A stretch of DNA of 32,000 bases from Candidatus Iainarchaeum sp. (GCA_030649345.1 JAUSKK010000036.1:2024-34023); one strand, 5' to 3'; counted from the first letter of the stretch, positions 8,989 to 22,812 are shown. A program made the numbers and translations. The notes: generated by a model from the letters alone, not told the origin.

Positions 8989-9006
8989 AAAATTGAGGGA
9001 TAAATT

Positions 9007-9273
9007 ATGAATAATTGTTCATTTTGTGGAACTAACATTCAACAAGGTACTGGAATTATTTTTGTAAAAAGAACCGGAAAACGTTTTGATTTCTGTTCAC
9101 GAAAATGTGAAAAAAATTTAATGAAATTAAATCGAAATCCAAGAAATTTCAAATGGACCCAAGAATACTGGAAAGAAAAAGGATTCCAGCAAGAAAAAGC
9201 AGGAAAAACTGAAACAGCTAAAAAAGAAGAAACTACAGAAAAGAAAGCTGTGAAACGAAAAAGAAAAAAGTAA
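9007..9273 (+). CDS. rpl24e: 50S ribosomal protein eL24 (L24e)
   Basis: 88 aa. CSFCGTNIQQGTGIIFVKRTGKRFDFCSRKCEKN is the L24e zinc-ribbon signature, followed by a lysine-rich tail. Confidence 0.93.
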   Translation: MNNCSFCGTNIQQGTGIIFVKRTGKRFDFCSRKCEKNLMKLNRNPRNFKWTQEYWKEKGFQQEKAGKTETAKKEETTEKKAVKRKRKK

Positions 9274-9274
9274 A
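9251..9274 (+). repeat. Direct repeat copy 1: last 6 codons plus TAA of rpl24e
   Basis: TGAAACGAAAAAGAAAAAAGTAAA matches 9375-9398 at 22/24. Patchy similarity (AATT..GTGG..CTG..CAAT) continues about 25 nt further in both copies. Confidence 0.8.
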
Positions 9275-9281
9275 CAATTCT

Positions 9282-9376
9282 GTGGTGCTGCAAGCACAAT
9301 AAAACAAAATGTTTTATGTGCATCAAAATCAGCAGATTTTGATTGCACCACGTTCGACCAACCGGAACCCCGGTTG
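9282..9376 (+). repeat. GC-rich structured intercistronic element, copy I1 (two-stem module)
   Basis: Stem 1 is GTGGTGC 9282-9288 / GCACCAC 9345-9351. It encloses two hairpins, 9294-9321 (12 bp with 1 bulge) and ATCAAAAT/ATTTTGAT 9322-9343. Linker is G-TTCGA. Stem 2 is CAACCGG-AACC-CCGGTTG at 9359-9376. Confidence 0.7.
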
Positions 9377-9398
9377 AAACGAAAGCGAAAAAAGTAAA
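9375..9398 (+). repeat. Direct repeat copy 2 of the rpl24e 3' end
   Basis: TGAAACGAAAGCGAAAAAAGTAAA. The two differences from copy 1 (AAA>AAG, AGA>CGA) are synonymous in the rpl24e frame, so it still reads KRKRKK-stop. Confidence 0.8.
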
Positions 9399-9406
9399 AT
9401 AATTTA

Positions 9407-9455
9407 GTGGCACTGGCGCAGCAATGCAACAGTGTCACATACTATCAATCCGGTG
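9407..9455 (+). repeat. Degenerate copy (I5) of the two-stem element
   Basis: Stem GTGGCACTG 9407-9415 / CAGTGTCAC 9430-9438 (9 bp including one G-U). It is followed by A-TACTA-TCAATCCGG, which resembles the core GCAsCAC-G-TGCTA-CCAACCsG at 13/20 against copy I4. Confidence 0.45.
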
Positions 9456-9925
9456 ATATTTTGGAACGAACGTTAATTATTGTAAAACCAGATGCAGTTC
9501 AACGAGGCTTGGTCGGAGAAATTGTAAAAAGATTTGAAGACAAAGGCTTGAAAATTGTAGCCATGAAATTAGAAGTATTGGCTGAAGAAAAACTCAAAGA
9601 ACATTATGCGCATCATTCCACAAAACCATTTTTTCCTGAATTGGTCAACTTTATGAAAAGTACACCTAGTGTATTAATGGTCTTGGAAGGCACAGAATGT
9701 GTTCGAGTGATTCGACAAATGTTGGGTGCCACCAATGGAAGAGATGCAACTTCTGGAACTTTACGCGGAGATTATTCCATTAGCAATCAAAATAATTTAG
9801 TTCATGCCAGTGAAAGTTTGGAAGCAGCAGAAAAAGAAATTGCTCGCTTTTTCAAAAAAGAAGAAGTCATGAATTACACCAAAACTTTAACTGAATGGTT
9901 TTATGCCAGTAAAGAAAAAAATTAA
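9407..9925 (+). CDS. ndk: Nucleoside diphosphate kinase
   Basis: ERTLIIVKPDAVQRGLVGEI..RFE.KGLKIVAMK...NLVHASES is the NDK signature with the active-site His. The conserved core begins at TTG 9461 (MERTLIIVKPD). GTG 9407 is the first base of a hairpin arm, so the first 18 codons are doubtful. Confidence 0.88.
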   Translation: MALAQQCNSVTYYQSGDILERTLIIVKPDAVQRGLVGEIVKRFEDKGLKIVAMKLEVLAEEKLKEHYAHHSTKPFFPELVNFMKSTPSVLMVLEGTECVRVIRQMLGATNGRDATSGTLRGDYSISNQNNLVHASESLEAAEKEIARFFKKEEVMNYTKTLTEWFYASKEKN

Positions 9926-9934
9926 GGGATTGTT

Positions 9935-10378
9935 TTGAACACTGCAGATTTGAAAGTATTTATTCGAAAAGTAAACGAACAAGCCATCTTGCCGCAGTAT
10001 GCTCATGAAAGCGATGCCGGCATGGATTTGTATGCTTGTGAAGAAACAGTTATTTTACCCGGGCAATGGAAAATGGTCAGTACTGGAATTTCCATTGAAA
10101 TGCCGCATGGCCTAGAAGCTCAAGTGCGGCCTAGATCTGGATTGGCAGCCAAGCATGGTTTAAGTGTATTGAATACTCCGGGAACCATTGATCCAGATTA
10201 TCGCGGAGAAATTAAAGTAATATTAATTAATTTTGGAAGCCAAGAATACAAAGTTGAATTTGGACACAAAATTGCTCAAATGGTTTTCAACAAAATTGAA
10301 AAACCCAAAATTGAAACAGTAGACCAATTAAGCGAAACCCAGCGCGGAGAAAAAGGCTTTGGTTCTACTGGAAAATAA
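9935..10378 (+). CDS. dut: dUTP diphosphatase (trimeric dUTPase)
   Basis: 147 aa. SDAGMDLYA, RPRSGLAAKHG, NTPGTIDPDYRGEIKVILIN, KIAQMVF and RGEKGFGSTG are the five dUTPase motifs. TTG start. Confidence 0.92.
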   Translation: MNTADLKVFIRKVNEQAILPQYAHESDAGMDLYACEETVILPGQWKMVSTGISIEMPHGLEAQVRPRSGLAAKHGLSVLNTPGTIDPDYRGEIKVILINFGSQEYKVEFGHKIAQMVFNKIEKPKIETVDQLSETQRGEKGFGSTGK

Positions 10379-10474
10379 TATTGATTGCATACGGGTCAAG
10401 GCGCTGAGCCAACCAAAAGAAATATCCATTCAAAGTGCAGGATTACAGAATCCTAAAACTTTGAATAACTGTGT

Positions 10475-12229
10475 GTGAAAATTATGATTCGACAACCGAT
10501 TATTGTAGTCATGGGCCATATTGACCATGGAAAAACCAAATTATTGGACAGAATTCGCGGAACCACTATAGCTGAAAGAGAAGCTGGAGCGATTACGCAA
10601 CATATTGGTGCTACTGAATTACCTGAAAATAAAATTCAAGCTATTTCTGGAAACTTATTAAAGCAATTTGGATTTCAATTAGAAATTCCAGGCTTATTGT
10701 TTATTGATACGCCTGGGCATGATGCATTCACGAATTTAAGAAGACGCGGTGGAAGCATTGCCGATTTATCTATTTTAGTTGTAGACTGCATGCAAGGAAT
10801 TCAACCGCAAACTTTGGAAGCCATTCAAATTTTGAAAACATTCAAAGTACCGTTTGTGGTAGCGTTTAATAAAATTGACAAATTACAAAACTGGCAAAGC
10901 AAGACAGGTTCGTTTTTAGAAAATGAAAAAATTCAAACTACCCATGCCCAAGAATTATTGGATAAAAAAATCTATGAATTGGTTGGAAGATTGTTTGAAT
11001 TAGGATTTGAAGCAGAACGCTTTGATCGAATTCAAGATTTCCGAAAACAAATAGCTATTGTTCCTTTGTCGGCTGTGGTGGGAGAAGGAATTCCTGAATT
11101 GTTAATGATGCTGTCTGGTTTAAGTCAAAAGTTTTTGAAAAACAAATTGGAAATCGGAGAACAAGAAAAATGCAAAGGCACTGTCTTGGAAGTCAAAGAA
11201 GACAAAGGCCTAGGAACAACATTGGATGTAATTTTATACGAAGGATCTTTACGCGTAGGAGATATCATTGCTGTTGGAACCAAACAAGGAGTCACTGAAA
11301 CCAAAATTCGTACTTTACTCAAACCCAAACCATTATCGGAAATACGGGATGAAAAAAATGTATTCAAATCAGTAGAATCTGTAAGCGCGGCTTGCGGAGT
11401 AAAAATTTCCGCTCCAAACTTAGAAAATGTTTTAGCGGGTTCTCCAGTATTGGATGCCAGTGTGGAATCACGGCAACAAATATTGGATGAAATTAAATCC
11501 ATTAAAATTTCAACCGAAGATATTGGCTTAGTCATCAAAGCAGATACTTTAGGATCCTTGGAAGCATTGATTGGATTAATGAAAAACAATCAAATTCCAG
11601 TACGATCCGCAGATGTAGGAATGGTTACCAAAAAAGATGTCATGGAAGCTTTGGCTTCAAAAGAAAAAGATGTTTACCATGGCTGTATTGTTGCATTCAA
11701 TGTAGAAATTGATAAAACTGCAGAAGACGAAGCCAAAAAAAGAGAGATTCAATTATTTTCAGGAAAAGTAGTGTACACCATTATTGATGAATATTCAAAT
11801 TGGGTAAAAACTCAAAAAGATCAAATGAAAAAAAACAAGTCTACTTTCTTGATAAGTCCAGCAAAAATTGAAGTATTGCGAGGCTTTGTTTTTAGAAGAT
11901 CCGATCCAGCCGTGGTTGGCGTAAAAGTATTGATTGGAAAAATTAAATCCAAAACAACATTGATTAATGAAAATACAATGGTACGATTGCAGGGATTGCA
12001 GGAAGAAAAAAAGGCTGTTGAATCTGCAGAAAAAGGAAAAGAACTGGCAGCATCCTTAGAGAATGCAGTCATTGGCCGAAACTTGTTTGAAGGAGATATA
12101 TTGTATACGTATATTCCAGAAAGCCAATTTGAAGAAATTCCAAAGTATTTGGAGCTAAATTCTGAAGAATTGGCCTTACTGGAGGAAATAAAAAATGTTC
12201 AAATCAAACATAAAGAGAACGGAGGATAA
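10475..12229 (+). CDS. infB: Translation initiation factor aIF5B (IF-2 homologue)
   Basis: 584 aa. PIIVVMGHIDHGKTKLLDRIRGT (G1), DTPGH (G3) and NKID (G4), with four-domain length. Start is GTG 10475 or ATG 10484. Confidence 0.93.
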   Translation: MKIMIRQPIIVVMGHIDHGKTKLLDRIRGTTIAEREAGAITQHIGATELPENKIQAISGNLLKQFGFQLEIPGLLFIDTPGHDAFTNLRRRGGSIADLSILVVDCMQGIQPQTLEAIQILKTFKVPFVVAFNKIDKLQNWQSKTGSFLENEKIQTTHAQELLDKKIYELVGRLFELGFEAERFDRIQDFRKQIAIVPLSAVVGEGIPELLMMLSGLSQKFLKNKLEIGEQEKCKGTVLEVKEDKGLGTTLDVILYEGSLRVGDIIAVGTKQGVTETKIRTLLKPKPLSEIRDEKNVFKSVESVSAACGVKISAPNLENVLAGSPVLDASVESRQQILDEIKSIKISTEDIGLVIKADTLGSLEALIGLMKNNQIPVRSADVGMVTKKDVMEALASKEKDVYHGCIVAFNVEIDKTAEDEAKKREIQLFSGKVVYTIIDEYSNWVKTQKDQMKKNKSTFLISPAKIEVLRGFVFRRSDPAVVGVKVLIGKIKSKTTLINENTMVRLQGLQEEKKAVESAEKGKELAASLENAVIGRNLFEGDILYTYIPESQFEEIPKYLELNSEELALLEEIKNVQIKHKENGG

Positions 12230-12233
12230 ATAA

Positions 12234-12293
12234 ATGGTTCCAAAATTCGAAAGAATTTTGAAACTTTAAAAAACACGGAGGTTTTTTAATGGC
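12234..12293 (+). promoter_or_regulatory. 60-nt upstream cassette, copy A (hairpin + AAACTTTAAAAAA + GGAGG + T6 + ATGGC), ending in the rps6e start
   Basis: 50/60 identical to 22813-22872. The 8-bp stem CAAAATTC/GAATTTTG (12241-12260) is intact in both copies while all 4 loop bases differ. Confidence 0.7.
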
Positions 12294-12711
12294 CGCGCCA
12301 AAATTAGATCAAAAAGTTGGAATGAATTTAGTAATCTCAGACCCAAAGACTGGAAACAGTTACAAAAAAGATACAGAACAGCCTGTTTTTTTAAATAAAA
12401 AAGTTGGTGAAACTGTAGACTTAAGCACAGTTGGATTGCAAGGCTATAAAGCTTTGATTACCGGCGGAAGTGACAAAGATGGTTTTCCATTAAAGCCTAC
12501 TTTGCCTGGAAGTGCAAGAAAAAAAGTATTGATTTCCCGAGGAGTTGGTTTACGACAAACCATTAAAGGCAGCCGGAGAAGAATTCGAGTCCGAGGAAAT
12601 CTTATTGCAGATGACGTACGACAAGTGAATTTAAAAATCACAGAATATGGAACACCTACATTGGAAACCATTTTCCCAAAAGCACCCAAAGCAGAAGACC
12701 AAGCAAAATAG
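12289..12711 (+). CDS. rps6e: 30S ribosomal protein eS6 (S6e)
   Basis: 140 aa. KLVISDPKTGNSYK...ITGGSDKDGFPL...RRR.RVRG is the S6e signature. GGAGG lies 8 nt upstream. Confidence 0.93.
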   Translation: MAAPKLDQKVGMNLVISDPKTGNSYKKDTEQPVFLNKKVGETVDLSTVGLQGYKALITGGSDKDGFPLKPTLPGSARKKVLISRGVGLRQTIKGSRRRIRVRGNLIADDVRQVNLKITEYGTPTLETIFPKAPKAEDQAK

Positions 12712-12724
12712 TTTTTGCGGGTCA

Positions 12725-12744
12725 CAGAAAACCAAGGTTTTCTG
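12725..12744 (+). other. Perfect inverted repeat just after the rps6e stop
   Basis: CAGAAAACC-AA-GGTTTTCTG, preceded by CGGGTCA (12718-12724). The same 7-mer follows the dut stop at 10392-10398. An alternative GTTTT/GAAAC pairing overlaps its 3' arm. Confidence 0.5.
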
Positions 12745-12790
12745 AAGAAACAAAAAAAGAATAATAAAATAAATGGATGTGAACTAACTC

Positions 12791-14014
12791 ATGGCTGGAA
12801 AAAAAGTAAAAACAGACAGCAGTGCACAATGCGTGCAAGCTGAAGTGAATATTGGTTTAGCCGGCCATGTAGATGCAGGAAAAACAACTTTAACTCAAGC
12901 ATTGAGTGGAAAATGGACAGACACGCATAGTGAAGAATTAAAGCGCGGAATTTCAATACGATTGGGATATGCGGATATTGGAATTTATAAATGCAGTAAA
13001 TGCAAAGAATTTAATTATTCGAATACCAGTGAATGCCCACAGTGTAAATCTCCAGGTATTTTAGACCGCAAAGTTAGTTTTGTGGATGCGCCAGGGCATG
13101 AAACATTAATGACTACTATGTTAAGTGGAGCTGCACTTATGCAAGGCGCTTTGTTGGTAATTGCCGCCAATGAAACTTGCCCGCAAGCACAAACCATTGA
13201 ACACTTGAATGCATTAATTATCAGCGGCATCGAGCAAGTCATTGTAGTGCAAAGCAAAGTAGATTTGGTCACCGAAGAACGAGCATTGGAAAGTCATAAA
13301 GAAATTAAAGAATTTTTGAAAGACACCCAATACAAAAACGCGCCCATTGTACCCATTGCAGCACATTTCAAAATCAATATTGATATATTATTGGAAGAAA
13401 TTCAAAAAAGTATTTCTTCGCCGAAATTTGATTCTACAAAACCATTGAAAATGTTTTGTGCACGATCTTTTGATATTAATAAACCAGGAACGCTTCCTTC
13501 AGAATTACATGGAAGTGTTTTAGGCGGAACCATTATTCAAGGAACCATCAAAAAAGGAGACACCATTGAATTAACTCCTTGGCTGGATGGAAAACAAATT
13601 CAAACCAAAGTTATTGAAATTCGAACCAGCGATGGAGTCTTAGAAGAAGCCAAGCCAGGCGGTTTAATTGCAATAGAAACTTTATTGGATCCAAGTTTAG
13701 CACAAAACGATCAGCTTAAAGGCCAAAACATTGGAGCTGTAGGAATATTCTCTGAACCTACCACAGTCTTGAAAATAGAAATGCATTTTTTGGATCGAGT
13801 TGTTGTCAGCAGTGCTAAACGAGTAGTGCAAGGAGATGACTTGGTTTTAACAGTTGGAACTGCAACTTTGTTGGGAATTGTTTCCAGCGTAAAAGGAAAT
13901 ACTGTAGTTGTTGCTTTGAAGAAACCAGCCGTAGCTGAAAAAGAACAAAAACTTGCAGTCAGCAAACGAGACCAAATGAAATGGAGATTAATTGCTTACG
14001 CAATCAATAAATAA
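12791..14014 (+). CDS. eif2g: Translation initiation factor aIF2 gamma subunit
   Basis: 407 aa. NIGLAGHVDAGKTTLTQALSGKWTDTHSEELKRGISIRLGYA, the zinc knuckle CSKC..CPQC, DAPGH and SKVD. Confidence 0.95.
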   Translation: MAGKKVKTDSSAQCVQAEVNIGLAGHVDAGKTTLTQALSGKWTDTHSEELKRGISIRLGYADIGIYKCSKCKEFNYSNTSECPQCKSPGILDRKVSFVDAPGHETLMTTMLSGAALMQGALLVIAANETCPQAQTIEHLNALIISGIEQVIVVQSKVDLVTEERALESHKEIKEFLKDTQYKNAPIVPIAAHFKINIDILLEEIQKSISSPKFDSTKPLKMFCARSFDINKPGTLPSELHGSVLGGTIIQGTIKKGDTIELTPWLDGKQIQTKVIEIRTSDGVLEEAKPGGLIAIETLLDPSLAQNDQLKGQNIGAVGIFSEPTTVLKIEMHFLDRVVVSSAKRVVQGDDLVLTVGTATLLGIVSSVKGNTVVVALKKPAVAEKEQKLAVSKRDQMKWRLIAYAINK

Positions 14015-14015
14015 T
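13983..14015 (+). repeat. Direct repeat copy 1: last 9 codons plus TAA of aIF2-gamma
   Basis: GGAGATTAATTGCTTACGCAATCAATAAATAAT is identical (33/33) to 14075-14107. Confidence 0.95.
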
Positions 14016-14074
14016 CAAAACTATCGAGGCAAAGCCGAAGATAGTTTAAAGTACCGCCGGCTTTCCGGCGAAAC
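14016..14074 (+). repeat. GC-rich two-hairpin insert, copy I2
   Basis: 29/59 G+C. Hairpin 1 is AAACTATC 14018-14025 / GATAGTTT 14040-14047, with GGC-AAA-GCC in the loop. Linker is AAAGTA. Hairpin 2 is CGCCGG-CTTT-CCGGCG at 14055-14070. Tail is AAAC. The right half aligns with I1 (ACC..CCGG..CCGG..GAAAC). Confidence 0.75.
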
Positions 14075-14107
14075 GGAGATTAATTGCTTACGCAATCAAT
14101 AAATAAT
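14075..14107 (+). repeat. Direct repeat copy 2 of the aIF2-gamma 3' end
   Basis: 33/33 identity to 13983-14015. It ends exactly at ATG 14108. Confidence 0.95.
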
Positions 14108-14587
14108 ATGCAATCAATCAATAAAAAAATGAATATTAAAAATGAAAAAAAATTAAACAGTGCTGCTGAAGTGCAACGAAAGCAGCACGTGCTACCAACC
14201 CGCACGCGGGTTGCAATTGACACAAATATGTTGTTAAGTGTCAGTCAATTAAAATTGGATATTTTTCAAGAAGTAGTCAACGAATTTGGAGAACAAAATT
14301 CTGAAATTGCAATCCCAGATAGGGTATTAAATGAATTAAAAAAATTGGCAGAAATTGAAAAAAACAAAGATGCCATTTTAGCTCAAGCCTGGTTAAACCA
14401 GAAAAAATTTAAAGTTTTGAAAGCCCAAAAGGCCGATAATGCAGATAAAGCCCTTTTAGAGCTTGCAAAACAAGGGTTTATCATAGCTACCAATGATAAA
14501 GTCTTACGAAAAAGTATAAAAAACGTTAATGGCAAGAGTATTTATATTAGAAAACGAAAAGTACTAGACTTTTCAGAAACATTCTAA
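14108..14587 (+). CDS. PIN-domain protein (the Fcf1/Utp23-like PIN gene conserved between aIF2-gamma and rpoE in archaea)
   Basis: The core VAIDTNMLL...IPDRVLNEL...DKALLELAKQGFIIATNDKVLRK carries PIN acidic residues. Gene order aIF2gamma-PIN-Rpo7-Spt4-S24e-S27ae is conserved. The start is uncertain: TTG 14084 lies inside the duplicated repeat, and other candidates are ATG 14108, ATG 14129 and GTG 14189. Confidence 0.72.
   Translation: MQSINKKMNIKNEKKLNSAAEVQRKQHVLPTRTRVAIDTNMLLSVSQLKLDIFQEVVNEFGEQNSEIAIPDRVLNELKKLAEIEKNKDAILAQAWLNQKKFKVLKAQKADNADKALLELAKQGFIIATNDKVLRKSIKNVNGKSIYIRKRKVLDFSETF
14160..14213 (+). repeat. Two-stem element, copy I4, inside the 5' extension of the PIN ORF
   Basis: Stem 1 is GTGCTGC 14160-14166 / GCAGCAC 14182-14188. 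Linker is G-TGCTA. Stem 2 is CAACCCG-CACG-CGGGTTG at 14196-14213. The core 14182-14201 is 16/20 identical to 9345-9364 and 15/20 to 22517-22536. Confidence 0.7.
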
Positions 14588-14617
14588 TTATTTAACAATT
14601 ATTGAGGTGTGAAATTC

Positions 14618-15235
14618 ATGTATGAATTGGTTAAAATTAAAGACAAAGTAAGAGTGCCGCCTGCACAATTTGGAAAAAATTTAACCGAAGCTTTGCTGAC
14701 TTTAACTCAACAACAATACGAAGGATTATTGGATGAAGATTTAGGAGTCATTGTAGCTATCACGCAAGCCGTAAAAAGCGGTGAAGGAAAAGTTGTATTG
14801 GGAGACGGAGCAGCCTACTACGAAACTGAATTAGAAATGGTAGTATACAAGCCGAGAATGCAGGAAGTCATAGAAGGAGTTGTCAGCGAGACCACAGAAT
14901 TTGGTGCATTTGTACGCATTGGCCCAATTGACGGCTTGGTTCATGTCAGTCAAATAATGGATGAATTCATCAATTACGATAGCAAAAATACTTGCTTTGT
15001 TGGAAAAGATTCTGGAAGAAAATTAAAAAAAGAAGATGCAGTCACAGCCAGAATTGTAACCATTAGTTTAAAGGGAGCCATTGCAGATTCCAAATTAGGA
15101 TTAACCATGCGCCAGCCTTTTTTAGGAAAAAAAGAATGGAATACTGGAGCACCTATTGAAAAGAAACCCATGGTTGCAAAAAAAGAAAAAATGGAAAAGC
15201 AGAAACCAGACAATAGACCTGCAGAAAAAAAATAA
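14618..15235 (+). CDS. rpoE: DNA-directed RNA polymerase subunit E' (Rpo7), S1 domain
   Basis: MYELVKIKDKVRVPP..FG, then VIEGVVSETTEFGAFVRIGPIDGLVHVSQI (S1 fold). GAGGTG lies 9 nt before ATG 14618; GTG 14609 abuts the SD. Confidence 0.9.
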   Translation: MYELVKIKDKVRVPPAQFGKNLTEALLTLTQQQYEGLLDEDLGVIVAITQAVKSGEGKVVLGDGAAYYETELEMVVYKPRMQEVIEGVVSETTEFGAFVRIGPIDGLVHVSQIMDEFINYDSKNTCFVGKDSGRKLKKEDAVTARIVTISLKGAIADSKLGLTMRQPFLGKKEWNTGAPIEKKPMVAKKEKMEKQKPDNRPAEKK

Positions 15236-15268
15236 GGTGAATTTTAAATGAATTTAAAATTTAAAAAA

Positions 15269-15306
15269 AATTTTAAAACTTTAAAAAACCGGGGGTTTTT
15301 TAAATG
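15269..15306 (+). promoter_or_regulatory. Partial third copy (C) of the upstream cassette, ending in the spt4 start
   Basis: AATTTTAAAACTTTAAAAAACCGGGGGTTTTTTAAATG aligns with the 3' two-thirds of cassette A (20/21 over AATTTTGAAACTTTAAAAAAC). It is preceded by an AT-only palindrome, AATTTTAAAT/ATTTAAAATT, at 15240-15261. Confidence 0.55.
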
Positions 15307-15501
15307 ACGGTAAAAGGAAAAGCTTGTAGAAATTGTAGAAAAGTAATTGAAGAAGGAAGTAATTGCCCCAACTGCAATAGCACAGCTTTCACAACTTTTT
15401 GGAAAGGATATGTAATCATTGTAAAACCAGAACAATCGGAAATTGCCAAACGCATGGGCATTAAAACAACCGGAATGCATGCTTTGCGATTAAGCAGATA
15501 A
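15304..15501 (+). CDS. spt4: Transcription elongation factor Spt4 (RpoE'')
   Basis: 65 aa. Zinc ribbon CRNC..CPNC followed by WKGYVIIVKPEQSEIAKRMGI, the Spt4 NGN-binding signature. Confidence 0.88.
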   Translation: MTVKGKACRNCRKVIEEGSNCPNCNSTAFTTFWKGYVIIVKPEQSEIAKRMGIKTTGMHALRLSR

Positions 15502-15516
15502 TTTTGAGGTGAAAAT

Positions 15517-15858
15517 TTGAAAGTAAATTTTATTGAAGAAAAAAACAATCTATTATTGGGAAGAAAAGAAATCCAATTTGAAATTGAAGAAATGAACACT
15601 GTCCCCAGCCGAAGCGAGGTATGCAAAAAAATCTCTTCACTCAAAGGAGCTGAAGAAGGATTAACCGTAATTGAAAAAATTGGTCATTATTTTGGACGAA
15701 AAAAAATTACTGGATTTGCTAAAATTTATTCCAGCAAAGAAGCTTTGCAAAAAATAGAACAAGAACATATTTTAGACCGACATTTACCGAAAGCAGAACG
15801 AAAACAAAAACAAGAACAAAAAAAGGCCGCAGCGGCTACAACGAAAAAAAGTAAATAA
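15517..15858 (+). CDS. rps24e: 30S ribosomal protein eS24 (S24e)
   Basis: 113 aa. NLLLGRKEIQFEIEEMNTVPSRSEV..KIS...FG is the S24e pattern. TTG start with GAGGTG upstream. Confidence 0.88.
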   Translation: MKVNFIEEKNNLLLGRKEIQFEIEEMNTVPSRSEVCKKISSLKGAEEGLTVIEKIGHYFGRKKITGFAKIYSSKEALQKIEQEHILDRHLPKAERKQKQEQKKAAAATTKKSK

Positions 15859-15878
15859 AAAAAATTAGGTGAACACGT

Positions 15879-16079
15879 ATGGCAGAACGAGAACGAAAAG
15901 GAAAAAAAGTACACAAACCAAAAAAGAAAATGAAAAAACACACGTACTATAAAATCAGTGAAACTACGATAACACGAAGCAAGAAAGCTTGCCCGAAATG
16001 CGGTGCTGGAGTTTTCTTAGCAGAGCATAAAAATCGCTCAACGTGTGGTACCTGCAAGTACACAGAAATGAAAAACTAA
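15879..16079 (+). CDS. rps27ae: 30S ribosomal protein eS31 (S27ae)
   Basis: 66 aa. CPKCGAGVFLAEHKNRSTCGTCKYT zinc ribbon. AGGTGA upstream. Confidence 0.9.
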   Translation: MAERERKGKKVHKPKKKMKKHTYYKISETTITRSKKACPKCGAGVFLAEHKNRSTCGTCKYTEMKN

Positions 16080-16086
16080 GTTTATT

Positions 16087-16635
16087 ATGACTTTTTATTT
16101 TTTGGATATCTTGTTGTACGGTGTACCGTTTCTTTTTTTATTTTTTCAACAAAAACAAAAATTGGAAATTGAATCATTTAAACAAAATGCAGAAACCCTT
16201 GGATTTAAAAAAATTGAATTCAAAAAACTCGCCCAGCAAACTGGACAGTTAATTGTACTTTTACTAATTGTAAATTTTGCTTTAGCATTTGTATTTTCTT
16301 TATTGAATTTAAATGACTTAGATAAAGTAGTCCAAACCATAAATCAAATTAAAGAAACCAGTCCAATGCTTTTAGTATACTTATTAACCATTCGGGTAAT
16401 TGGAGAAGAAATATTTTTCCGTGGTTTCTTGGTTCCACGCAGTGGAATACTTTTTTCAACCATTTTTTTTGCTTTAGGGCATATAGGATTTGGTTCCATT
16501 ACAGAAGTTGTTGGAGCTTTTATTTTAGGCGGAATTTTAGCGTATTGGTTTCAAAAATACCAAAATTTGTACGTGAATATTTCAGCCCATTTGTTTTACA
16601 ATTTTTTTTTAATCAGTTTATTGAACGGAGTATAA
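16087..16635 (+). CDS. CPBP-family intramembrane metalloprotease (CAAX protease/Abi-like)
   Basis: 182 aa, multi-pass membrane protein. GEEIFFRGFL (EExxxR), FFALGH (FxxxH) and a distal SAHLFYN His motif. Confidence 0.8.
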   Translation: MTFYFLDILLYGVPFLFLFFQQKQKLEIESFKQNAETLGFKKIEFKKLAQQTGQLIVLLLIVNFALAFVFSLLNLNDLDKVVQTINQIKETSPMLLVYLLTIRVIGEEIFFRGFLVPRSGILFSTIFFALGHIGFGSITEVVGAFILGGILAYWFQKYQNLYVNISAHLFYNFFLISLLNGV

Positions 16636-16636
16636 T

Positions 16637-17248
16637 ATGAGAACTAGAATTATTTCACACATAGAACCTGAAGCTTTAGAGCTTGCAGTCAAAATTTTGA
16701 AAAAACAAGGCTTGGTTATTTTTCCTACAGAAAGCAGTTATGGTTTAGGGTGCTTGTTGAATAACCAAAATGGCAGAAGAAAAATTTATAAAATTAAAAA
16801 AAGAAGCCAACACAAAAGTTTGCCGGTGATTACAGGAAATGTCAAAATTATTTCCAAATACGCAGAATTAACTCAAGAAGATAAAAAATTAATCAAAAAA
16901 TTTATGCCTGGCCCTTTAAGTTTGCTGGTGAAAGCAAAACCTAAAGCACCCAAAGAATTTCAAAAAAATGGAATTGTTTTTCGGGTTTCCAGCAATGCAT
17001 TTGCCAGAAATTTAAGTTTGAAAACAAACCAGCCAATCATTAGCACCAGCGCCAATATATCCAGCAAACCTTCGGCATATACTTTGAGTGAAGTAATCCG
17101 ATTGTTTGCAGGACGAGTTGATTTAATTGTAGAAGCAGGAAATTTAAAAAAACGAACAGCCAGCACAATTTATGATACAAAAAACAAAAAGGTTATTCGA
17201 AAAGGACCTGTAACTGAAAAAGAAATTTTGAACGTGATTGAAAAATGA
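16637..17248 (+). CDS. sua5: L-threonylcarbamoyladenylate synthase (Sua5/TsaC/YrdC domain only)
   Basis: 203 aa. VIFPTESSYGLGC, K..KKRSQHKSLPVI, GPLSLLV and ISTSANISS are YrdC-fold motifs. Its stop overlaps the kae1 ATG (ATGA at 17245-17248). Confidence 0.88.
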   Translation: MRTRIISHIEPEALELAVKILKKQGLVIFPTESSYGLGCLLNNQNGRRKIYKIKKRSQHKSLPVITGNVKIISKYAELTQEDKKLIKKFMPGPLSLLVKAKPKAPKEFQKNGIVFRVSSNAFARNLSLKTNQPIISTSANISSKPSAYTLSEVIRLFAGRVDLIVEAGNLKKRTASTIYDTKNKKVIRKGPVTEKEILNVIEK

Positions 17249-18231
17249 TTGCACTTGGAATTGAATCAACGGCTCATACATTCGGAATTGGAATTGTGGA
17301 TTCTAAAGGAAAAGTCTTGGCCAATGAAAAAGATACCTTAAAGCCAAAAGATAAAGGATTGATTCCCAGAGAATTGGCAGAGCATCATTTTCAAGTCAGT
17401 GAACGAATACTAAGACAAGCTTTAGATAAAGCTGAAGTTAAATTAAGTGAAATTGATTTAATTGGTTTTTCTCAAGGCCCAGGAATTGGAAATGCTTTAC
17501 GCATTGGAGCTACTGTAGGACGTGCGCTTTCTTTGAAATTGAACAAGCCTTTGGCTCCAGTCAATCATTGCATTGCCCATATTGAAATTGGAAAAAAGAA
17601 AACCAAAGCAAAAGATCCTGTGGTTGTGTATGCCAGCGGAGCGAATACACAAATTATTACTTTAAGCAATGAAAGATACCGAATTTTTGGAGAAACATTA
17701 GATATTGGAATTGGAAACATGATGGATTCATTTGGCCGAGAGTTAGGTTTAGGATTTCCAGCTGGTCCAATTTTAGATCAATGGTATTTTTTAGGAAAAA
17801 AATATATTCCTTTACCGTATACAGTCAAAGGAAGTGATTTGGTTTTTTCTGGACTGCAAACTGCAGCAGAACGAATGATTGGAAAAGAAACCCAAGAAGA
17901 TTTAGCTTACAGTTTATTACATACTGGTTTTGCTATGTTAACTGAAGTTACTGAAAGAGTATTGGCACATACTGGAAAAAAAGAAGTCTTATTGGTGGGA
18001 GGCGTAGCTGCCAGCAAAGCATTGAATCAAATGATGGACACCATGTGCGAAGAAAGAAATGCAAAAAAATTTGTCCCAGAAGTACAATTTTGCACAGACA
18101 ACGGAGCCATGATTGCTTGGACTACTCATTTGGTTTACAAAAGCCAAGGAAAAATTTCCATAAAAGAATCGGAAATCAAGCCCAAGCAACGTACGGACGA
18201 TGTTGTTCCGAAATGGATTCAAAAAAAATAA
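17245..18231 (+). CDS. kae1: tRNA N6-adenosine threonylcarbamoyltransferase Kae1 (KEOPS catalytic subunit)
   Basis: 328 aa. ALGIESTAHTFGIGIV, NHCIAHIEIG (metal His pair), SGANTQI, VGGVAASKAL and CTDNGAMIAW. Confidence 0.93.
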   Translation: MIALGIESTAHTFGIGIVDSKGKVLANEKDTLKPKDKGLIPRELAEHHFQVSERILRQALDKAEVKLSEIDLIGFSQGPGIGNALRIGATVGRALSLKLNKPLAPVNHCIAHIEIGKKKTKAKDPVVVYASGANTQIITLSNERYRIFGETLDIGIGNMMDSFGRELGLGFPAGPILDQWYFLGKKYIPLPYTVKGSDLVFSGLQTAAERMIGKETQEDLAYSLLHTGFAMLTEVTERVLAHTGKKEVLLVGGVAASKALNQMMDTMCEERNAKKFVPEVQFCTDNGAMIAWTTHLVYKSQGKISIKESEIKPKQRTDDVVPKWIQKK

Positions 18232-18241
18232 ACTCGCCAAA

Positions 18242-18901: not shown

Positions 18902-18921
18902 ACAGATCTAAATACTTAGAA

Positions 18922-19449
18922 TTATTTTTCTGAACGAAAGCTAGCAGTATATTGATAGAGTTTTAAAAAAACTGCCAAAATTACAATAAAGATTCCAACA
19001 TTCAAAGCATACGAGTAGGGCTGAACGATTCCATAATTTTCCCAGTTAATAAAAGTTAATTCTGGATCCAAATAAGCTGCAATCGCGTAAGCTATAAAAA
19101 AAGCAAACACAATTTCAATTATAATCAAAGCCAAGACTCGGGGATCGTTTTTTGCATTTTTTAATTTTTGCTGCACAGCATCTTTCAATGTTTTGCCGGC
19201 CAAAACTTGGATATCATAGGCTTGGGTTTGTTTTTTTTTCAAAACAAAATACACGGCAATAAATGTGAACAAAGAAAGGCCGGCTAAAAATAAATATTCT
19301 GGCGAAAAATTAAATGAAACTGTCCGCTCAAAGACATTGATTTGAATAATTTGAATTAAAGAATAAATAAATGAAACCAGCAAAGCAAACTCCATGAGCA
19401 CAATAGCAATAACTTTTTTGTTTGCTTGAATGGTTTCAATTGCTTGCAT
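18922..19449 (-). CDS. Four-TM membrane protein, function unknown
   Basis: 175 aa with four clear hydrophobic helices. A 20-nt gap separates it from the next gene and 32 nt from the wHTH gene. Confidence 0.55.
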   Translation of the reverse strand: MQAIETIQANKKVIAIVLMEFALLVSFIYSLIQIIQINVFERTVSFNFSPEYLFLAGLSLFTFIAVYFVLKKKQTQAYDIQVLAGKTLKDAVQQKLKNAKNDPRVLALIIIEIVFAFFIAYAIAAYLDPELTFINWENYGIVQPYSYALNVGIFIVILAVFLKLYQYTASFRSEK

Positions 19450-19481
19450 TGTTTAAACTTAGGAAACCGGAATATAAAAAA

Positions 19482-19913
19482 CTAGTCTTCGATTTCCAAG
19501 CCAAATTTTTGATCCAATTCTCGTGCAGTTTCTTCCATTCTTCTAAAAATTAAGTTCACTTCTTCTTGAATTTCTTTAATCGTACGAGACATACTTCGCG
19601 AACGCGCTAAATAAAATCTTCCTTCTCGAACAATTAAGCCAGAAAGCAAAAGCTTATTCAAATGATTAATCACAGCACCGCGAGACATATTTACTTTATC
19701 CGCAATTTCTGGACAAGTCAAAAGCTTGCCTTGCTCAGTAGCTTGAACAAGTACTCGAAAAATAGCAAAAGCCAACTTGTCTTTGTCAATGGGTTCAAAT
19801 AAACCAAAACTTTGACAAATCCAACCCAGCTCTTGTTCTACATCATGCTGAAAAGGCTGTTCTATACGTTTAATAACTATTTTAAACGAAGTACGGCGCA
19901 CAGTCATATACAA
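19482..19913 (-). CDS. Winged-helix DNA-binding protein (ArsR/MarR-like), divergent from grpE
   Basis: 143 aa. LTCPEIADKVNMSRGAVINHLNKLLLSGLIVREGRFY is a helix-turn-helix plus wing pattern, followed by a C-terminal helical tail. The alternative start is M3. Confidence 0.6.
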   Translation of the reverse strand: MYMTVRRTSFKIVIKRIEQPFQHDVEQELGWICQSFGLFEPIDKDKLAFAIFRVLVQATEQGKLLTCPEIADKVNMSRGAVINHLNKLLLSGLIVREGRFYLARSRSMSRTIKEIQEEVNLIFRRMEETARELDQKFGLEIED

Positions 19914-19945
19914 GTACTCTTAATGGAATAAATTTAAAAACATTT

Positions 19946-19973
19946 TGATTAAACAGTTTGATAAATGATTAAA
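19946..19973. promoter_or_regulatory. Repeated TGATTAAA half-sites in the divergent wHTH/grpE promoter region
   Basis: TGATTAAA at 19946-19953 and 19966-19973 (20-bp spacing), and TGATAAA at 19959-19965. An ATTTAAAAA TATA-like box at 19932-19940 is shared by both directions. Confidence 0.35.
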
Positions 19974-19999
19974 GAGTTTAGACAAATAAGGTAGTTTTT

Positions 20000-20566
20000 A
20001 TGACTTTTGAAACAAAAAGCAATGAAAAAGAAGGAATGGAAAGCCCAACACCTGAAAATAACCGTCCAAGCGAAAATAATGAAGAATTCAATGCATTAAT
20101 GACTAAAAAACAGGCTGAGATGCAGGATTATATCAATGATTTAAAGCGGTTACAGGCCGATTTTGAGAACTATCGAAAGAGGGTAGAACGCGAGCGAACA
20201 GAATATGTAAAGCATGCCAATTTTGGATTTTTGCGAGAAATATTGGCTTTATTGGATTCAGTTCAATCAGCAGTTCATAAACTGGAAAATGAAAAAGAAT
20301 TCAATCAAGGAAAAGCCGTGCATGGTTTGCAGTTATTGGAAAAACAATTTAAAGAATTTTTAAAAAAACACGGAGTGCATGAAATCCAAGCACAAAATTG
20401 TAAATGTGATCCTGCAGTACATGAAGTTGTATTGCAAGGAACAGATAATTCAAAACCAGATGAAATGATTTTGGAAGAATTGCAAAAAGGATATCTATTG
20501 CATGACAAAGTTTTACGGTCAGCAAAAGTAAAAGTCAACAAATTAGATAGTAAAATTGAAAAATAA
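20000..20566 (+). CDS. grpE: Nucleotide exchange factor GrpE
   Basis: 188 aa. LKRLQADFENYRKRVERE and the C-terminal beta domain GYLLHDKVLRSAKVKV. Confidence 0.92.
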   Translation: MTFETKSNEKEGMESPTPENNRPSENNEEFNALMTKKQAEMQDYINDLKRLQADFENYRKRVERERTEYVKHANFGFLREILALLDSVQSAVHKLENEKEFNQGKAVHGLQLLEKQFKEFLKKHGVHEIQAQNCKCDPAVHEVVLQGTDNSKPDEMILEELQKGYLLHDKVLRSAKVKVNKLDSKIEK

Positions 20567-20613
20567 TTATAAAATTTGAAAAATAAAAGTATGATTTTTG
20601 AAGGTGGTATGAA

Positions 20614-22500
20614 ATGAGTAAAGTAATTGGAATCGATTTAGGAACCAGTAATTCAGCAGCTGCAGTCTTGGAAGCAGGAAAACCAAAAATTATTCCAAGC
20701 GCAGAAGGAACTTCTTTATACGGAAAAGCATTTCCAAGTGTTGTGGCATTCACAAAAGATGACCAAGTTTTGGTGGGTGAACCGGCACGCAGACAAGCTG
20801 TCAGTAATCCAGATAAAACAATTATGGCAGCCAAGCGAAAAATGGGAACTACTTTCAAATACAAGATTGGCTCGAAAGAATTTACGCCTCAACAAATTAG
20901 TGCATTTATTTTACAGAAAATTAAAAAAGACGCAGAAGAATTTTTAGGCGAAAAAGTAGAAAAAGCTGTAATCACTGTGCCAGCTTATTTTGATGACAAT
21001 CAAAGACAAGCAACCAAAGATGCAGGAGAAATTGCAGGCTTGGAAGTTATTCGAATTATTAATGAACCCACAGCTGCTGCTTTAGCCTATGGCTTAGATA
21101 AAAGCAATCAAGACATGAAAATTTTAGTATTCGATTTCGGCGGCGGAACATTGGATGTAACTGTAATGGAATTAGGCCATGGAGTCTTTGAAGTCAAATC
21201 AACCAGCGGAGACACTCAATTGGGCGGCACAGACATGGATAAAATTTTAGTGGATTATTTGGTGGCAGAATTCAAAAAAGAACAAGCTGTTGATTTAAGC
21301 AAAGACAGTGTAGCTATGCAGAGATTACGAGAAGCTGCAGAAAAAGCCAAAATTGAATTAAGTACAGTTTTGGATACACAAATTAATTTACCGTACATTA
21401 CAGCTACTCCGGAAGGCCCGAAACATTTGGCCCTGAGTTTAACAAGATCAAAATTAGAACAATTGGTCGAGCCCTTAATTCATAGATGCGAAAAACCAGT
21501 CCAGCAAGCTTTGGCGGATGCCAAAGTATCCCCGGGAGATGTAGCTAAAATTATTTTAGTCGGCGGACCAACCCGAATGCCTGCAGTACAAAAGTTTGTG
21601 GAAAAAATTACAGGAGCCAAACCAGAACGAGGCATTGACCCAATGGAATGTGTAGCTATGGGTGCAGCCATTCAAGCCGGAGTTTTAGCTGGAGAAGTTA
21701 AAGATGTTTTATTATTGGACGTAACACCCCTAAGTTTAGGAATTGAAACCTTGGGTGGAGTGTTTACTCATTTAATTGAACGCAATACAACCATTCCAAC
21801 CAAAAAAACTCAAATATTTAGCACAGCTGCAGACAACCAAAATGCAGTAGATATTCATATCCTGCAAGGAGAAAGACCTATGGCAGTAGACAACAAAAGT
21901 TTGGGCAGATTTATTTTAGATGGAATTCCTCCAGCACCTCGCGGTGTTCCACAAGTTGAAGTCATGTACGATATTGATGCCAACGGAATTTTGGATGTTA
22001 AAGCCAAAGATTTAGGCACAGGCAAAGAAAAAAGCATCAAAATTGTTTCTCCGCAAAAATTGGATAAAGAAGAAATTGAGCGAATGAAGCAGGAAGCGGA
22101 AAAGTTTGCAGAAGCGGATCAAAAGAAAAAAGAAGAGATTGAAACTTTGAATATGGCAGACAACACAGTTTATGGGACTGAAAAGGTGTTGAAAGAATTG
22201 AGCGGGAAAATTTCTGCAGAACAAGAAACAGAAATTAAAGAAAAAAATGAAACATTAAGAAAATTAGTAAACGAGCCAACCAAAGATGTTGCAAAAATTA
22301 AAACAGCTTTAGATGACTTGAATGCATTCGTGCAAAAAATCAGTACAGAAATGTATCAAAAAGCCGGAGAACAATACCAGCAACAAAATCAAGGAGAACA
22401 AGGAAATCCCGGACAAGAAGAAGAACACAAGCACAAAAAGAAAAACAAAGACGGAAAAGTGGTTGACGCGGAGTTTAAGGAAGACGAAAGCAAACAATAG
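20614..22500 (+). CDS. dnaK: Chaperone DnaK (Hsp70), bacterial type
   Basis: 628 aa. [56 protein letters not shown] and [15 protein letters not shown] lies 7 nt upstream. Confidence 0.97.
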
Positions 22501-22502
22501 TG
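22461..22502 (+). repeat. Direct repeat copy 1: last 12 codons plus TAG of dnaK
   Basis: GGTTGACGCGGAGTTTAAGGAAGACGAAAGCAAACAATAGTG matches 22595-22636 at 41/42. Confidence 0.95.
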
Positions 22503-22594
22503 CTGAACGCAGTGAAGCACTACGACCTACCAACCGCGCGATTAAAACGCAGCGTTTTAATGCGCATTTAAACAAAAGTTTAAATCGCGTCCGC
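22503..22594 (+). repeat. GC-rich structured insert, copy I3 of the two-stem element
   Basis: Short stem AGTG-AAG-CACT at 22511-22521. Core is GCACTACG-ACCTA-CCAACCG at 22517-22536. The outer stem CAACCGCG 22531-22538 / CGCGGTTG 22592-22599 reaches into repeat copy 2. It encloses the hairpins ATTAAAAC/GTTTTAAT (22541-22561) and ATTTAAAC-AAAA-GTTTAAAT (22566-22585). Confidence 0.75.
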
Positions 22595-22636
22595 GGTTGA
22601 CGCGGAGTTTAAGGAAGACGAGAGCAAACAATAGTG
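22595..22636 (+). repeat. Direct repeat copy 2 of the dnaK 3' end
   Basis: The single difference (A 22488 versus G 22622) is GAA>GAG, synonymous in the dnaK frame. Confidence 0.95.
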
Positions 22637-22665
22637 GAAAAGATAGAACAAATGGAGTTGGTCAT

Positions 22666-22794: not shown

Positions 22795-22812
22795 TTAATC
22801 AGGTAGAAATCA

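Follow-up and report, generated by a model that had tools for sequence, protein, structure and literature searches.

A candidate family of small two-hairpin repeats associated with duplicated gene tails in housekeeping operons of a Diapherotrites archaeon

We analysed a 32,000-nt stretch of DNA from Candidatus Iainarchaeum sp. (GCA_030649345.1, JAUSKK010000036.1:2024-34023), an uncultured Diapherotrites (DPANN) archaeon; this whole stretch is called the window below. It has a GC content of 35% and consists of housekeeping operons, nearly all on the + strand. Five GC-rich two-hairpin elements, here named E1, E1', E2a, E2b and E3, were found at three gene junctions: rpl24e/ndk (E1 and E1'), aIF2-gamma/PIN (E2a and E2b) and dnaK/dnaJ (E3). 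GC content was 46–72% within the elements versus 31–40% along the window. Three of the five (E1, E2a and E3) are bracketed by a target duplication of 24, 38 and 42 nt, respectively, whereas E1' and E2b have none. Our best explanation, to which we would give about an even chance, is that the elements form a lineage-private family of small (core ~40–60 nt) GC-rich two-hairpin palindromic repeats that spread by microhomology-mediated templated insertion, also termed copy-choice.

An earlier reading made from the sequence by itself (hereafter the sequence-only reading) had reported that the last codons and the stop codon of the upstream gene are present twice at all three loci, and our direct-repeat search recovered these repeats at 24, 38 and 42 nt. 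At rpl24e, the genuine last codons and TAA (9251–9274, +) recur as a non-coding second copy (9375–9398, +), with 22 of 24 positions identical (92%). At both differing positions a close relative, described below, matches copy 1; it is therefore copy 2, which is non-coding, that carries the two derived changes. At aIF2-gamma, copy 1 (13978–14015, +) comprises the genuine last codons and TAA together with the ancestral Shine-Dalgarno-like GGAG and the TTG from which the overlapping PIN starts. Copy 2 (14070–14107, +) matches it at 37 of 38 positions (97%), including an exact stretch of 33 nt, and is followed by a partial third tandem copy (ATGCAATCAATCAATAAAAAA; 14108–14128, +) with no element in between. 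One plain partial tandem tail copy thus exists. At dnaK, copy 1 (22461–22502, +) holds the last 12 codons, TAG and then TG, and copy 2 (22595–22636, +) shows a single difference, GAA to GAG (41 of 42 positions, 98%).

The dnaK and aIF2-gamma tails were the two longest of 32 direct-repeat families within 600 nt in the whole window, and the rpl24e tail, at 92% identity, was the best among the short direct repeats. The 32-kb window contains three such tail duplications versus four unrelated cases in 1.2 Mb of sequence from relatives. The substitutions in the duplicated coding parts had been described as all synonymous. This was correct for three of the four differences; however, when the full 38-nt aIF2-gamma repeat is considered, T13982 versus C14074 changes TGG to CGG (W to R) and is non-synonymous. 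The W is retained at this codon in a relative with 84% aIF2-gamma identity (P0002).

The five elements share a general plan and differ in detail. The E1 insert (100 nt; 9275–9374, +) has stem 1 GTGGTGC/GCACCAC (9282–9288 / 9345–9351), the linker GTTCGAC and stem 2 CAACCGG-AACC-CCGGTTG (9359–9376), with an RNA fold z-score of −6.5. Downstream of tail copy 2 lies the degenerate E1' (9399–9455, +; fold z = −3.7), which has stem 1 GTGGCACTG/CAGTGTCAC, then CAATCCGG, and lacks the 3' arm of stem 2 and any flanking duplication. It runs from stem 1 through the linker and CAATCC straight into the native GGTGA Shine-Dalgarno sequence of ndk, with the break between CAATCC and GG, and is a copy truncated within stem 2 without a duplication. 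The E2a insert (14016–14069, +; fold z = −4.3) measures 54 nt, or 59 nt with GAAAC, and combines an AT-rich stem 1 (AAACTATC/GATAGTTT) with stem 2 CGCCGG-CTTT-CCGGCG. E2b (14160–14213, +) consists of stem 1 GTGCTGCT/AGCAGCAC, the linker GTGCTAC and stem 2 CAACCCG-CACG-CGGGTTG, and is in frame with the PIN open reading frame (ORF). The E3 insert (92 nt; 22503–22594, +) has stem 1 TAGTGCT/AGCACTA, with the dnaK stop codon (TAGTG) forming part of its 5' arm, and stem 2 CAACCGCG/CGCGGTTG (22531–22538 / 22592–22599). The 3' arm of stem 2 extends into tail copy 2, by GGTTG in E3 and by TG in E1.

Two elements carry an additional module. AT-rich double hairpins are nested in the loop of E1 stem 1 (9295–9343, +; perfect hairpins at 9299–9317 and 9322–9343) and in the loop of E3 stem 2 (22537–22591, +; perfect hairpins at 22541–22561 and 22566–22585), as the sequence-only reading had noticed. 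The two modules resemble each other: their global alignment scored 8.5, while shuffles had a mean of −4.1 and a maximum of 6.5, and none of 500 reached the observed score. A second small palindromic unit, an AT-rich hairpin pair of ~50 nt, is thus nested in E elements. All five copies point in the same direction on the sense strand, no more than 200 nt from a stop codon, and no inverted doublets occur. Their placement between cistrons, as first described, does not fully apply to E2b, which lies within the PIN ORF as annotated by NCBI (ATG 14129).

Several results bear on whether these copies are one family. The motif CAACCS-N(4-34)-SGGTTG was found twice in the window against 0.06 expected, and its N(35-65) form once against 0.05 expected. 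All three matches were the three sites originally claimed (~0.1 expected in total), and the common two-stem architecture proposed for them was reproduced. The proposed 20-nt cores, said to be identical at 15–16 of 20 positions, fared equally well: the best three-way 20-nt window (9344 / 14181 / 22516) gave 16, 15 and 16 matches, a similarity reached in 0 of 300 dinucleotide shuffles of the three spacers. Stem 1, a 7-nt linker and the CCAACC stem 2 follow one another in the same order at the three loci, and the single-stranded linker plus CCAACC is the most conserved portion of the elements. The E cores as a whole are mutually only 62–74% identical.

These results also bear on a reading without dispersal, in which the spacers grew locally by tandem duplication and short hairpin-making template switches, and the likeness between loci arose by chance or convergence. 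Such growth would be in keeping with the abundance of perfect hairpins of ≥8 bp (~19 versus 3.3 expected, nearly all in spacers) and with the plain partial tandem tail copy at 14108–14128. Parts of E3 also match the neighbouring tail in reverse complement (CGCGTC/GACGCG and CAACC/GGTTG), and template switching is a known maker of hairpins (PMC8794818). However, we consider local growth highly improbable in view of the shuffle test of the core, the recurrence of the stem 1, linker and CCAACC stem 2 order at three loci, and the similarity of the E1 and E3 AT modules. The sequences following tail 1 and tail 2 are, moreover, unrelated at two loci. The last point also removes the earlier suggestion that a unit of gene tail plus structured RNA was duplicated in tandem as the general cause, since at aIF2-gamma and dnaK the sequence after tail 2 is unrelated to that after tail 1. 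At rpl24e the same suggestion fails in another way: the tails are 92% identical, yet E1 and E1' are far more diverged.

We then considered base pairing. In an alignment of the three canonical copies (A3; 53 columns, hand-registered on the stems, with variable loops trimmed), 95.6% of stem cells were paired, and slid controls gave 24–47% pairing. Four of 15 pairs carried changes on both sides, two of them in stem 1 (G-C/A-U and G-C/C-G) and the other two, both G-C/C-G, in stem 2, a level reached in 3 of 500 shuffles. Because A3 was fitted to the stems, this test is supportive rather than decisive for the view that the stems are maintained by compensatory changes.

A covariance model trained on the three canonical copies was used to scan both strands of the window without filters. 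E1' (9405–9467; 10.3 bits, E 0.47) and E2a (14016–14074; 9.6 bits, E 0.68) were the best two full-length matches outside the training set, and nothing else in the window was similar. These scores are weak and not significant alone; both degenerate copies are nevertheless credible because they are located in the same spacers. The two degenerate copies previously placed at 14016–14074 and 9407–9455 were therefore recovered, ranking next after the training copies.

A before-and-after comparison came from rpl24e/ndk. Via protein clusters of NDK and L24e at ≥90% identity, we found a close relative on three independent groundwater contigs (L084, L142 and L143; samples SAMN03202995 and SAMN03202999, run SRR1658466, PRJNA268031), with 91–95% nucleotide identity in rps28e, rpl24e and ndk. 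All three contigs read ...AAAAAAATAA ATGGTGACTCA ATGGAACGA, with ATGGTGACTCA preceding the ndk ATG, so that the rpl24e–ndk spacer is 11 nt long there versus 187 nt in the window. In BLAST comparison with the window, the alignment ends at 9274 and restarts at 9462; the relative therefore lacks E1, tail copy 2 and E1' alike.

Junctions in more distant relatives were compact as well. The nearest GTDB species representatives are Iainarchaeota, with an aIF2-gamma identity of only 58%. In a relative with 64% aIF2-gamma identity (L082), rpl24e and ndk overlap by 4 nt and aIF2-gamma and PIN by 17 nt. Among the loci that we fetched, aIF2-gamma and PIN overlap by ~5–30 nt in roughly 30 Iainarchaeota genomes, rpl24e and ndk are 0–20 nt apart in most, and the dnaK/dnaJ gap is 19 nt in one relative (L026). 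Gene positions in P0002 leave a 102-nt gap 3' of aIF2-gamma, which suggests that this junction is expanded there as well. For the other two junctions, the RpoE' contigs of the close relative end before aIF2-gamma/PIN, a PIN homologue search returned no close relative, and a search with the DnaK C-terminus for a near relative's dnaK/dnaJ junction gave a best match of only 62% identity. The comparison of junctions in relatives suggested with the original reading thus showed that rpl24e/ndk is an empty site in the close relative and that junctions are compact or overlapping in ~30 related genomes.

Searches for further copies were negative within the collections covered. The covariance model gave no match at E ≤ 1 in 84 related loci (1.2 Mb). 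A simple stem-2 pattern gave five matches in 81 related loci, all attributable to chance and inside GC-rich coding DNA. The strict core plus stem 2 motif matched 55 times in JGI metagenome contigs, which is about the number expected by chance; all of these lacked stem 1 and lay on contigs of 37–70% GC. In viral contigs there was one chance match, also without stem 1 and in a GC-rich contig, and BLAST against phages and plasmids gave no match. With Rfam 15, nothing in the window reached the gathering score, and the three junctions gave only chance-level matches in E-value mode, in agreement with the initial impression that no known RNA family was present. A conserved cis-regulatory RNA is not supported, because the elements are absent at the orthologous junctions of the close relative and from the 84 related loci. 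According to these sequence comparisons, the elements are recent insertions, made more than once and shortly past stop codons in densely packed operons, and not conserved RNAs of these operons.

As the source is a metagenome assembly, the tail repeats around the hairpins might be an assembly artefact. The aIF2-gamma tail repeat includes 33 nt of exact identity, and Logan contigs stop at several element/tail borders. However, these Logan contigs, an independent assembly of run SRR13727527, were 100% identical to the window over 7436–9378, 9350–11871, 11856–14012, 14078–17803 and 22595–24657. They cover tail 1 with E1, the end of E1 with tail 2 and E1', tail 2 with E2b, and dnaK tail 2 onwards, so that E1 is covered from both sides and E1' and E2b in full. 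The repeat copies also carry point differences, which are not a product of collapse or expansion artefacts. We regard an artefact as extremely improbable.

Four of the five internal Logan contig ends coincide with element/tail borders (9378, 14012, 14078 and 22595). One contig (L147) begins at 22595, the first base of dnaK tail copy 2, with the same sequence as the window. Collapse of k-mers fails to explain the breaks at 9378 and 22595, because the rpl24e and dnaK copies share fewer than 31 exact bases. These breaks might stem from a second allele, or from additional element copies present in the sample. We rejected them as proof of extra copies, as one break falls in ordinary coding DNA, and treat them as a hint.

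The borders of the inserts gave information on how they may have arisen. The 3' junctions always lie inside the shared element end ..SGGTTGAAAC (GGTTGAAAC-like) and show 2–7 nt of microhomology to the target. At the E1 3' junction (CCGGTTGAAAC), TGAAACG is also present in the native rpl24e tail; at that of E3 (CGCGGTTGA), GGTTGA belongs to the native dnaK tail. The bases common to the element end and the start of tail copy 2 are TG or TGAAAC in E1, GAAA in E2a and GGTTG(A) in E3. At the E2a 3' junction (CCGGCGAAAC), the native aIF2-gamma tail has GAAAT. The sole mismatch between the aIF2-gamma tails, at the start of tail 2 (T to C at 14074, GAAAT to GAAAC), recreates the sequence found 3' of E1. 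The E2b 3' end, CGGGTTG, continues into the PIN codons GTT GCA. On the 5' side, the native TAGTG at the E3 junction equals the start of the family 5' arm ([CT]AGTG).

These features are better accounted for by copy-choice than by a transposase acting on defined ends. DNA that folds into hairpins is a known trigger of fork stalling and template switching, and the latter both makes and maintains perfect hairpins (PMC8794818, PMC7954356, PMC12708500). In the proposed process, a nascent strand with its 3' end in A-rich sequence past a stop codon would switch to another E copy as template and copy that E in the 5' to 3' direction. It would return to the original template where the 3' end of E (..SGGTTGAAAC) meets a few matching bases. 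A return upstream of the departure point would duplicate the gene tail (24, 38 or 42 nt), a return at the departure point would leave no duplication (E1' and E2b), and an early return would give a truncated copy (E1'). The same process without the detour would give a plain tandem tail copy, as at 14108–14128. Within this route, end joining could take the place of template switching. To our knowledge, microhomology-mediated templated insertion has not been described in archaeal operons.

Selection would then retain only those events in which neither neighbouring gene is damaged. At aIF2-gamma/PIN, the duplicated 33–38 nt begin at the GGAG preceding the PIN start that lay ancestrally within the tail (TTG 14084 in copy 2). 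Because the overlap holds the PIN ribosome-binding site and start, only an insertion that duplicates the overlap would leave both genes intact here. The duplications at rpl24e/ndk and dnaK are better explained by the mechanism itself, because relatives show no overlap there. The E insertions differ in age, because the tails are 92, 97 and 98% identical but the E cores only 62–74%. The donors of the youngest insertions, E2a and E3, lie outside the window, and further copies are therefore predicted elsewhere in the genome.

A non-autonomous element resembling a MITE (miniature inverted-repeat transposable element) or a repetitive extragenic palindromic (REP) sequence was also considered. Here an enzyme encoded elsewhere would make widely staggered cuts, and gap filling would leave long, variable target-site duplications. 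Insertion between direct repeats of the target at three loci, the empty site in the relative and the dispersed related copies are all as expected of such an element. The insert ends are loosely alike too, with CAAWWC or CTGAAC on the 5' side and CCGGY or CCGC on the 3' side (CAATTC...CCCCGGT in E1, CAAAAC...TTCCGGC in E2a and CTGAAC...CGTCCGC in E3). However, these ends are not mutual reverse complements, and no terminal inverted repeats were found at them; the inverted repeats are the internal stems. The duplications measure 24, 38 and 42 nt and are missing from E1' and E2b, the overlap of the element 3' end with the start of the duplication differs every time, and one copy is truncated. We know of no prokaryotic insertion sequence (IS) family that gives duplications of 24–42 bp.

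Given the variable duplication length, the lack of terminal inverted repeats, the 3' microhomology and the truncated copy, the ends do not seem to be defined by a transposase. Among the ORFs of the 32-kb window, Pfam and NCBIfam detected no transposase, integrase or reverse transcriptase and no RAYT / Y1 transposase, which bears out the earlier observation that no transposase or integrase is visible. We therefore think a transposable element fairly unlikely. The REP/MITE-like insertion with a long target duplication that had been put forward first fares best of the three original suggestions and is for the most part correct, with another probable mechanism: insertion is supported by the empty site, the compact junctions of relatives and the related copies, but REP and MITE serve as analogies and not as classes to which E belongs, as the ends do not look transposase-defined.

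RNA-templated insertion deserves mention because of the shape of the inserts. In a process like that of short interspersed elements (SINEs), a nick after the A-rich tail would prime copying of an element RNA (target-primed reverse transcription), a variably staggered second nick would set the duplication, and incomplete copying would give E1'. Duplications of variable length, A-rich sites, and distal microhomology and truncation are classic marks of target-primed reverse transcription. All are seen here: the duplications vary, insertion is 3' of A-rich sequence, the distal junction has microhomology, and E1' is truncated distally, without the 3' arm of stem 2. Against this, the window contains no reverse transcriptase or endonuclease, the template would need to be antisense to the operons, and DNA copy-choice yields every one of these marks equally. 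We know of no SINE-like target-primed reverse transcription system in archaea, and we consider this route very unlikely. A bolder variant would have an archaeal non-autonomous E actively spreading from A-rich gene 3' ends by priming and template-jumping, whether RNA-templated or by a dedicated DNA copy-choice. It would leave long variable duplications and, together with the AT module and a hairpin cassette called 'M' (described below), would split ancestral overlapping operons. This we rate as quite unlikely.

Other known sources of repeats were tried and rejected. Template and variable repeats of a diversity-generating retroelement would be longer than the repeats seen here, and the differences do not fall on template A positions. 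In ectopic CRISPR spacer integration and with casposons, duplication length is ruler-fixed, but it is variable here. An origin by integrase att sites conflicts with the small size of the element and with the three different 'att' sequences. No bulge-helix-bulge structure was present, which eliminates bulge-helix-bulge introns, and no conserved boxes indicated an H/ACA or C/D small RNA (sRNA). A tRNA-like or split-tRNA origin was dismissed as ARAGORN returned nothing for the elements; the only resemblance is a 6-nt GTTCGA.

Several points weigh against spread of a repeat family by copy-choice. Only five copies are available, all in one 32-kb stretch of one metagenome-assembled genome (MAG). The microhomologies are short (2–7 nt), and the family 3' consensus is drawn from four sequences. 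The similarity at 5' junctions is weak evidence because A-rich flanks are common in a 35% GC genome. Hand registration of A3 on the stems favours the pairing counts, and the independent Logan contigs do not span the interiors of E2a and E3. The empty site in a close relative applies to rpl24e only, while the other loci were compared with distant relatives (aIF2-gamma ≤64%; DnaK 68–72% at dnaK–dnaJ). Known end-joining templated insertions, finally, usually copy nearby DNA and not dispersed repeats.

The insertions also have consequences for the neighbouring genes. The ndk gene retains GGTGAT-N3-TTG (9461). For PIN, NCBI places the start at ATG 14129 and Logan at ATG 14108, whereas homologue length points to GTG 14189, in the E2b linker, with E2b stem 2 lying 3' of this start. 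PIN homologues lack the N-terminal stretch containing E2b, because they are only 122–134 aa long. Tail copy 2 is separated from PIN's conserved VAIDTN by 102 nt (14108–14209) made up of the partial tail copy, an A-rich run and E2b. This insert is in frame and stop-free, a combination found in ~3% of shuffles. E2b may thus either be translated as an N-terminal extension of PIN (predicted peptide ...AAEVQRKQHVLPTRTRV) or supply a new start codon.

The position of the hairpins in the operons also raises the possibility that they are functional structured RNA modules, acting as 3'-exonuclease barriers, processing sites or translational uncouplers in the manner of REP hairpins, and that they are kept by selection with the duplications as by-products. 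Each of the five sits on the sense strand, at most 200 nt away from a stop codon, the stems are perfect with four compensatory pairs, fold z-scores range from −2.5 to −6.5, and the most conserved portion, the linker plus CCAACC, is single-stranded. However, the elements are absent at the same junction in the closest relative and in all other relatives, and these operons hence do not require them. The opposite strand folds just as well, and Rfam gives no match even in E-value mode. As an account of their presence we judge this unlikely; an RNA function is compatible with copy-choice insertion as a later use, not as the origin. By analogy with REP sequences, it is plausible that the hairpins, once transcribed beyond a stop codon, may serve as mRNA stabilisers or uncouplers. 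Any such role would not be ancestral, because the elements are absent from the closest relative.

We compared the elements with known small repeats. Mobile GC clusters of yeast mitochondria and repetitive hairpin elements of sponge mitochondria are GC-rich hairpin units in AT-rich compact genomes; they encode no enzyme, and their mechanism is unsettled (PMC4478555, PMC2800124). A further case is provided by the double-hairpin elements (DHE) found in the mitochondria of Allomyces (Paquin et al. 2000, as cited in PMC4478555). Like the E elements, mitochondrial GC clusters and DHE are GC-rich single or double hairpins in spacers of an AT-rich compact genome, differ in presence between relatives, merge or nest, occasionally insert in frame into genes and have no enzyme of their own. 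They differ in being organellar and eukaryotic, in having a putative target duplication of 2 nt (AG or TAG) versus 24–42 nt here, and in sharing no sequence similarity with E, which is known from five copies; the analogy is one of behaviour only. In this limited sense, mitochondrial GC clusters, double-hairpin elements and sponge hairpin elements may be regarded as the closest known counterparts.

REP, BIME and REPIN sequences resemble E as small GC-rich extragenic palindromes after stop codons in operons, and their sense-strand hairpins can stabilise upstream mRNA (PMC3184786). Unlike E, which has one orientation and long duplications at three of five copies, REPs lack a target duplication, often form inverted doublets and are accompanied by a RAYT (Y1) gene (PMC3184786). 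IS-derived MITEs share with E a short, non-coding structure, direct target repeats and empty sites in relatives (PMC11602168, PMC3184786), and E copies are dispersed over three loci within 13 kb. In contrast to E, however, MITEs carry terminal inverted repeats, and their parent transposase dictates a short duplication of constant length. Microhomology-mediated templated insertions and template-switch mutations produce variable duplications with 'filler', few-bp junction microhomology and perfect hairpins that are made and maintained (PMC8794818, PMC7954356, PMC11790251), but the known cases copy nearby sequence and build no dispersed repeat family. E departs from REP/RAYT systems in having target duplications and no inverted doublets, and from MITEs in having neither terminal inverted repeats nor a short duplication of constant length; we therefore file the E elements as small non-autonomous palindromic repeats outside both. 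Rickettsia palindromic elements are bacterial repeats of 100–150 bp that may sit in frame within a gene and be translated, without a long duplication. E2b in the PIN N-terminal extension recalls them, its translation being suggested only by the open frame (~3% by chance).

The genes of the window and some further features are described here for context. The genes comprise rps11, rpoD, a tRNA-Leu-like gene with an intron, rpl18e, rpl13, rps9, rpoN, rps2, TrmB, an orphan secreted protein and GluRS; then rpl7ae, rps28e, rpl24e, ndk, dut, aIF5B, rps6e, aIF2-gamma and a PIN_9 protein; and then rpoE', spt4, rps24e, rps27e and others, followed by grpE, dnaK and dnaJ. Pfam confirmed the gene identities, including rpl24e and dnaK. 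Protein collection entries for the 88-aa L24e (9007–9273, +) came only from Logan and ENA and none from NCBI, so rpl24e seems to be unannotated in the deposited MAG. Between TrmB and GluRS, a 680-aa orphan ORF (4492–6534, +) with a lipoprotein-type signal sequence (LLLGC) forms an insertion relative to L082. It had no match in Pfam, NCBIfam or PDB and is not an obvious mobility enzyme.

Two RNA features were noted at the 5' side of the window. A tRNA-Leu(UAA)-like gene (1192–1315, +) has an insert of ~38 nt after the anticodon loop (GCGCAGGAGTACCCAAGCGGCCAACGGGGCAGGACTTAAG ... GGTTCGAATCCTTCCTCCTGCACA) and was missed by both ARAGORN and Rfam at the gathering score. Just 3' of it is a perfect 9-bp hairpin, CTTTTTTCC-TTAC-GGAAAAAAG (1319–1340). 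The structured 154-nt leader of rpl7ae (8250–8403, +) contains CTGA and GATGA motifs beside a GC-rich hairpin (GGTATCGGAACCGAAGGTTCTGATT...CCGATGATAA), and may be a putative autoregulatory L7Ae K-turn site.

Hairpins with a perfect stem of ≥8 bp were ~6-fold more frequent than in shuffles (~19 distinct versus 3.3) and almost confined to intergenic spacers, with examples at 1319, 9299, 9322, 12241, 12266, 12725, 15240–15304, 22541, 22566, 22820 and 22845. Some belong to the promoter-like double-hairpin cassette 'M', GGTTCCAAAATTC-N4-GAATTTTGAAACTTTAAAAAAY-(loop with GGAG/AGGA)-RTTTTTTAATG, found at 12236–12291 and 22815–22870, with a related copy at 15269–15306. The cassette abuts the ATG of rps6e and that of dnaJ (89% identity over 38 nt). 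These two copies differ in the first loop (GAAA versus TTTT), and the second stem shows a compensatory change from C-G to U-A. The related copy abuts the spt4 ATG and is kept in the close relative. The rps6e copy is an insertion relative to L082, because infB and rps6e abut there at a distance of 0 nt. The ~180 nt (22637–22814, +) that separate 'M' from dnaK tail copy 2 contain a 42-aa ORF (ATG 22666–22794; NCBI hypothetical protein MDO8428454), and tblastn of the enclosing 65-aa ORF (22597–22794) against the related loci gave no match.

Repeats of other kinds were seen on contigs of other lineages. A Micrarchaeota contig (L064, 3340–3540, −) carries a tandem 30-nt unit, CCTCGGCATGAACGAAGTGAATGACGAGGG, with spacers of ~25–30 nt, which is either CRISPR-like or an sRNA array. 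A Hadarchaeota contig (L033, 12230–12560, −) has many copies of the palindrome GACTACGTAYMTACGTAG every ~30–60 nt, an unrelated repeat family.

Small hairpin repeats, although familiar from bacteria and organelles, have scarcely been reported for DPANN archaea, which have tiny and densely packed genomes. The rpl24e locus offers a before-and-after view of such a genome, as the close relative is still compact there. It also illustrates, together with the other loci, how abutting or overlapping essential genes could be separated without damage when the shared segment is duplicated by the insertion. Were the family limited to these five copies, it would be a local curiosity. The variable 24–42-nt duplications and the microhomology point to replication- or repair-based spread of a repeat, which, if true genome-wide, would be an unusual route of proliferation and a source of new mRNA hairpins, start codons (such as GTG 14189 in the E2b linker) and N-terminal extensions.

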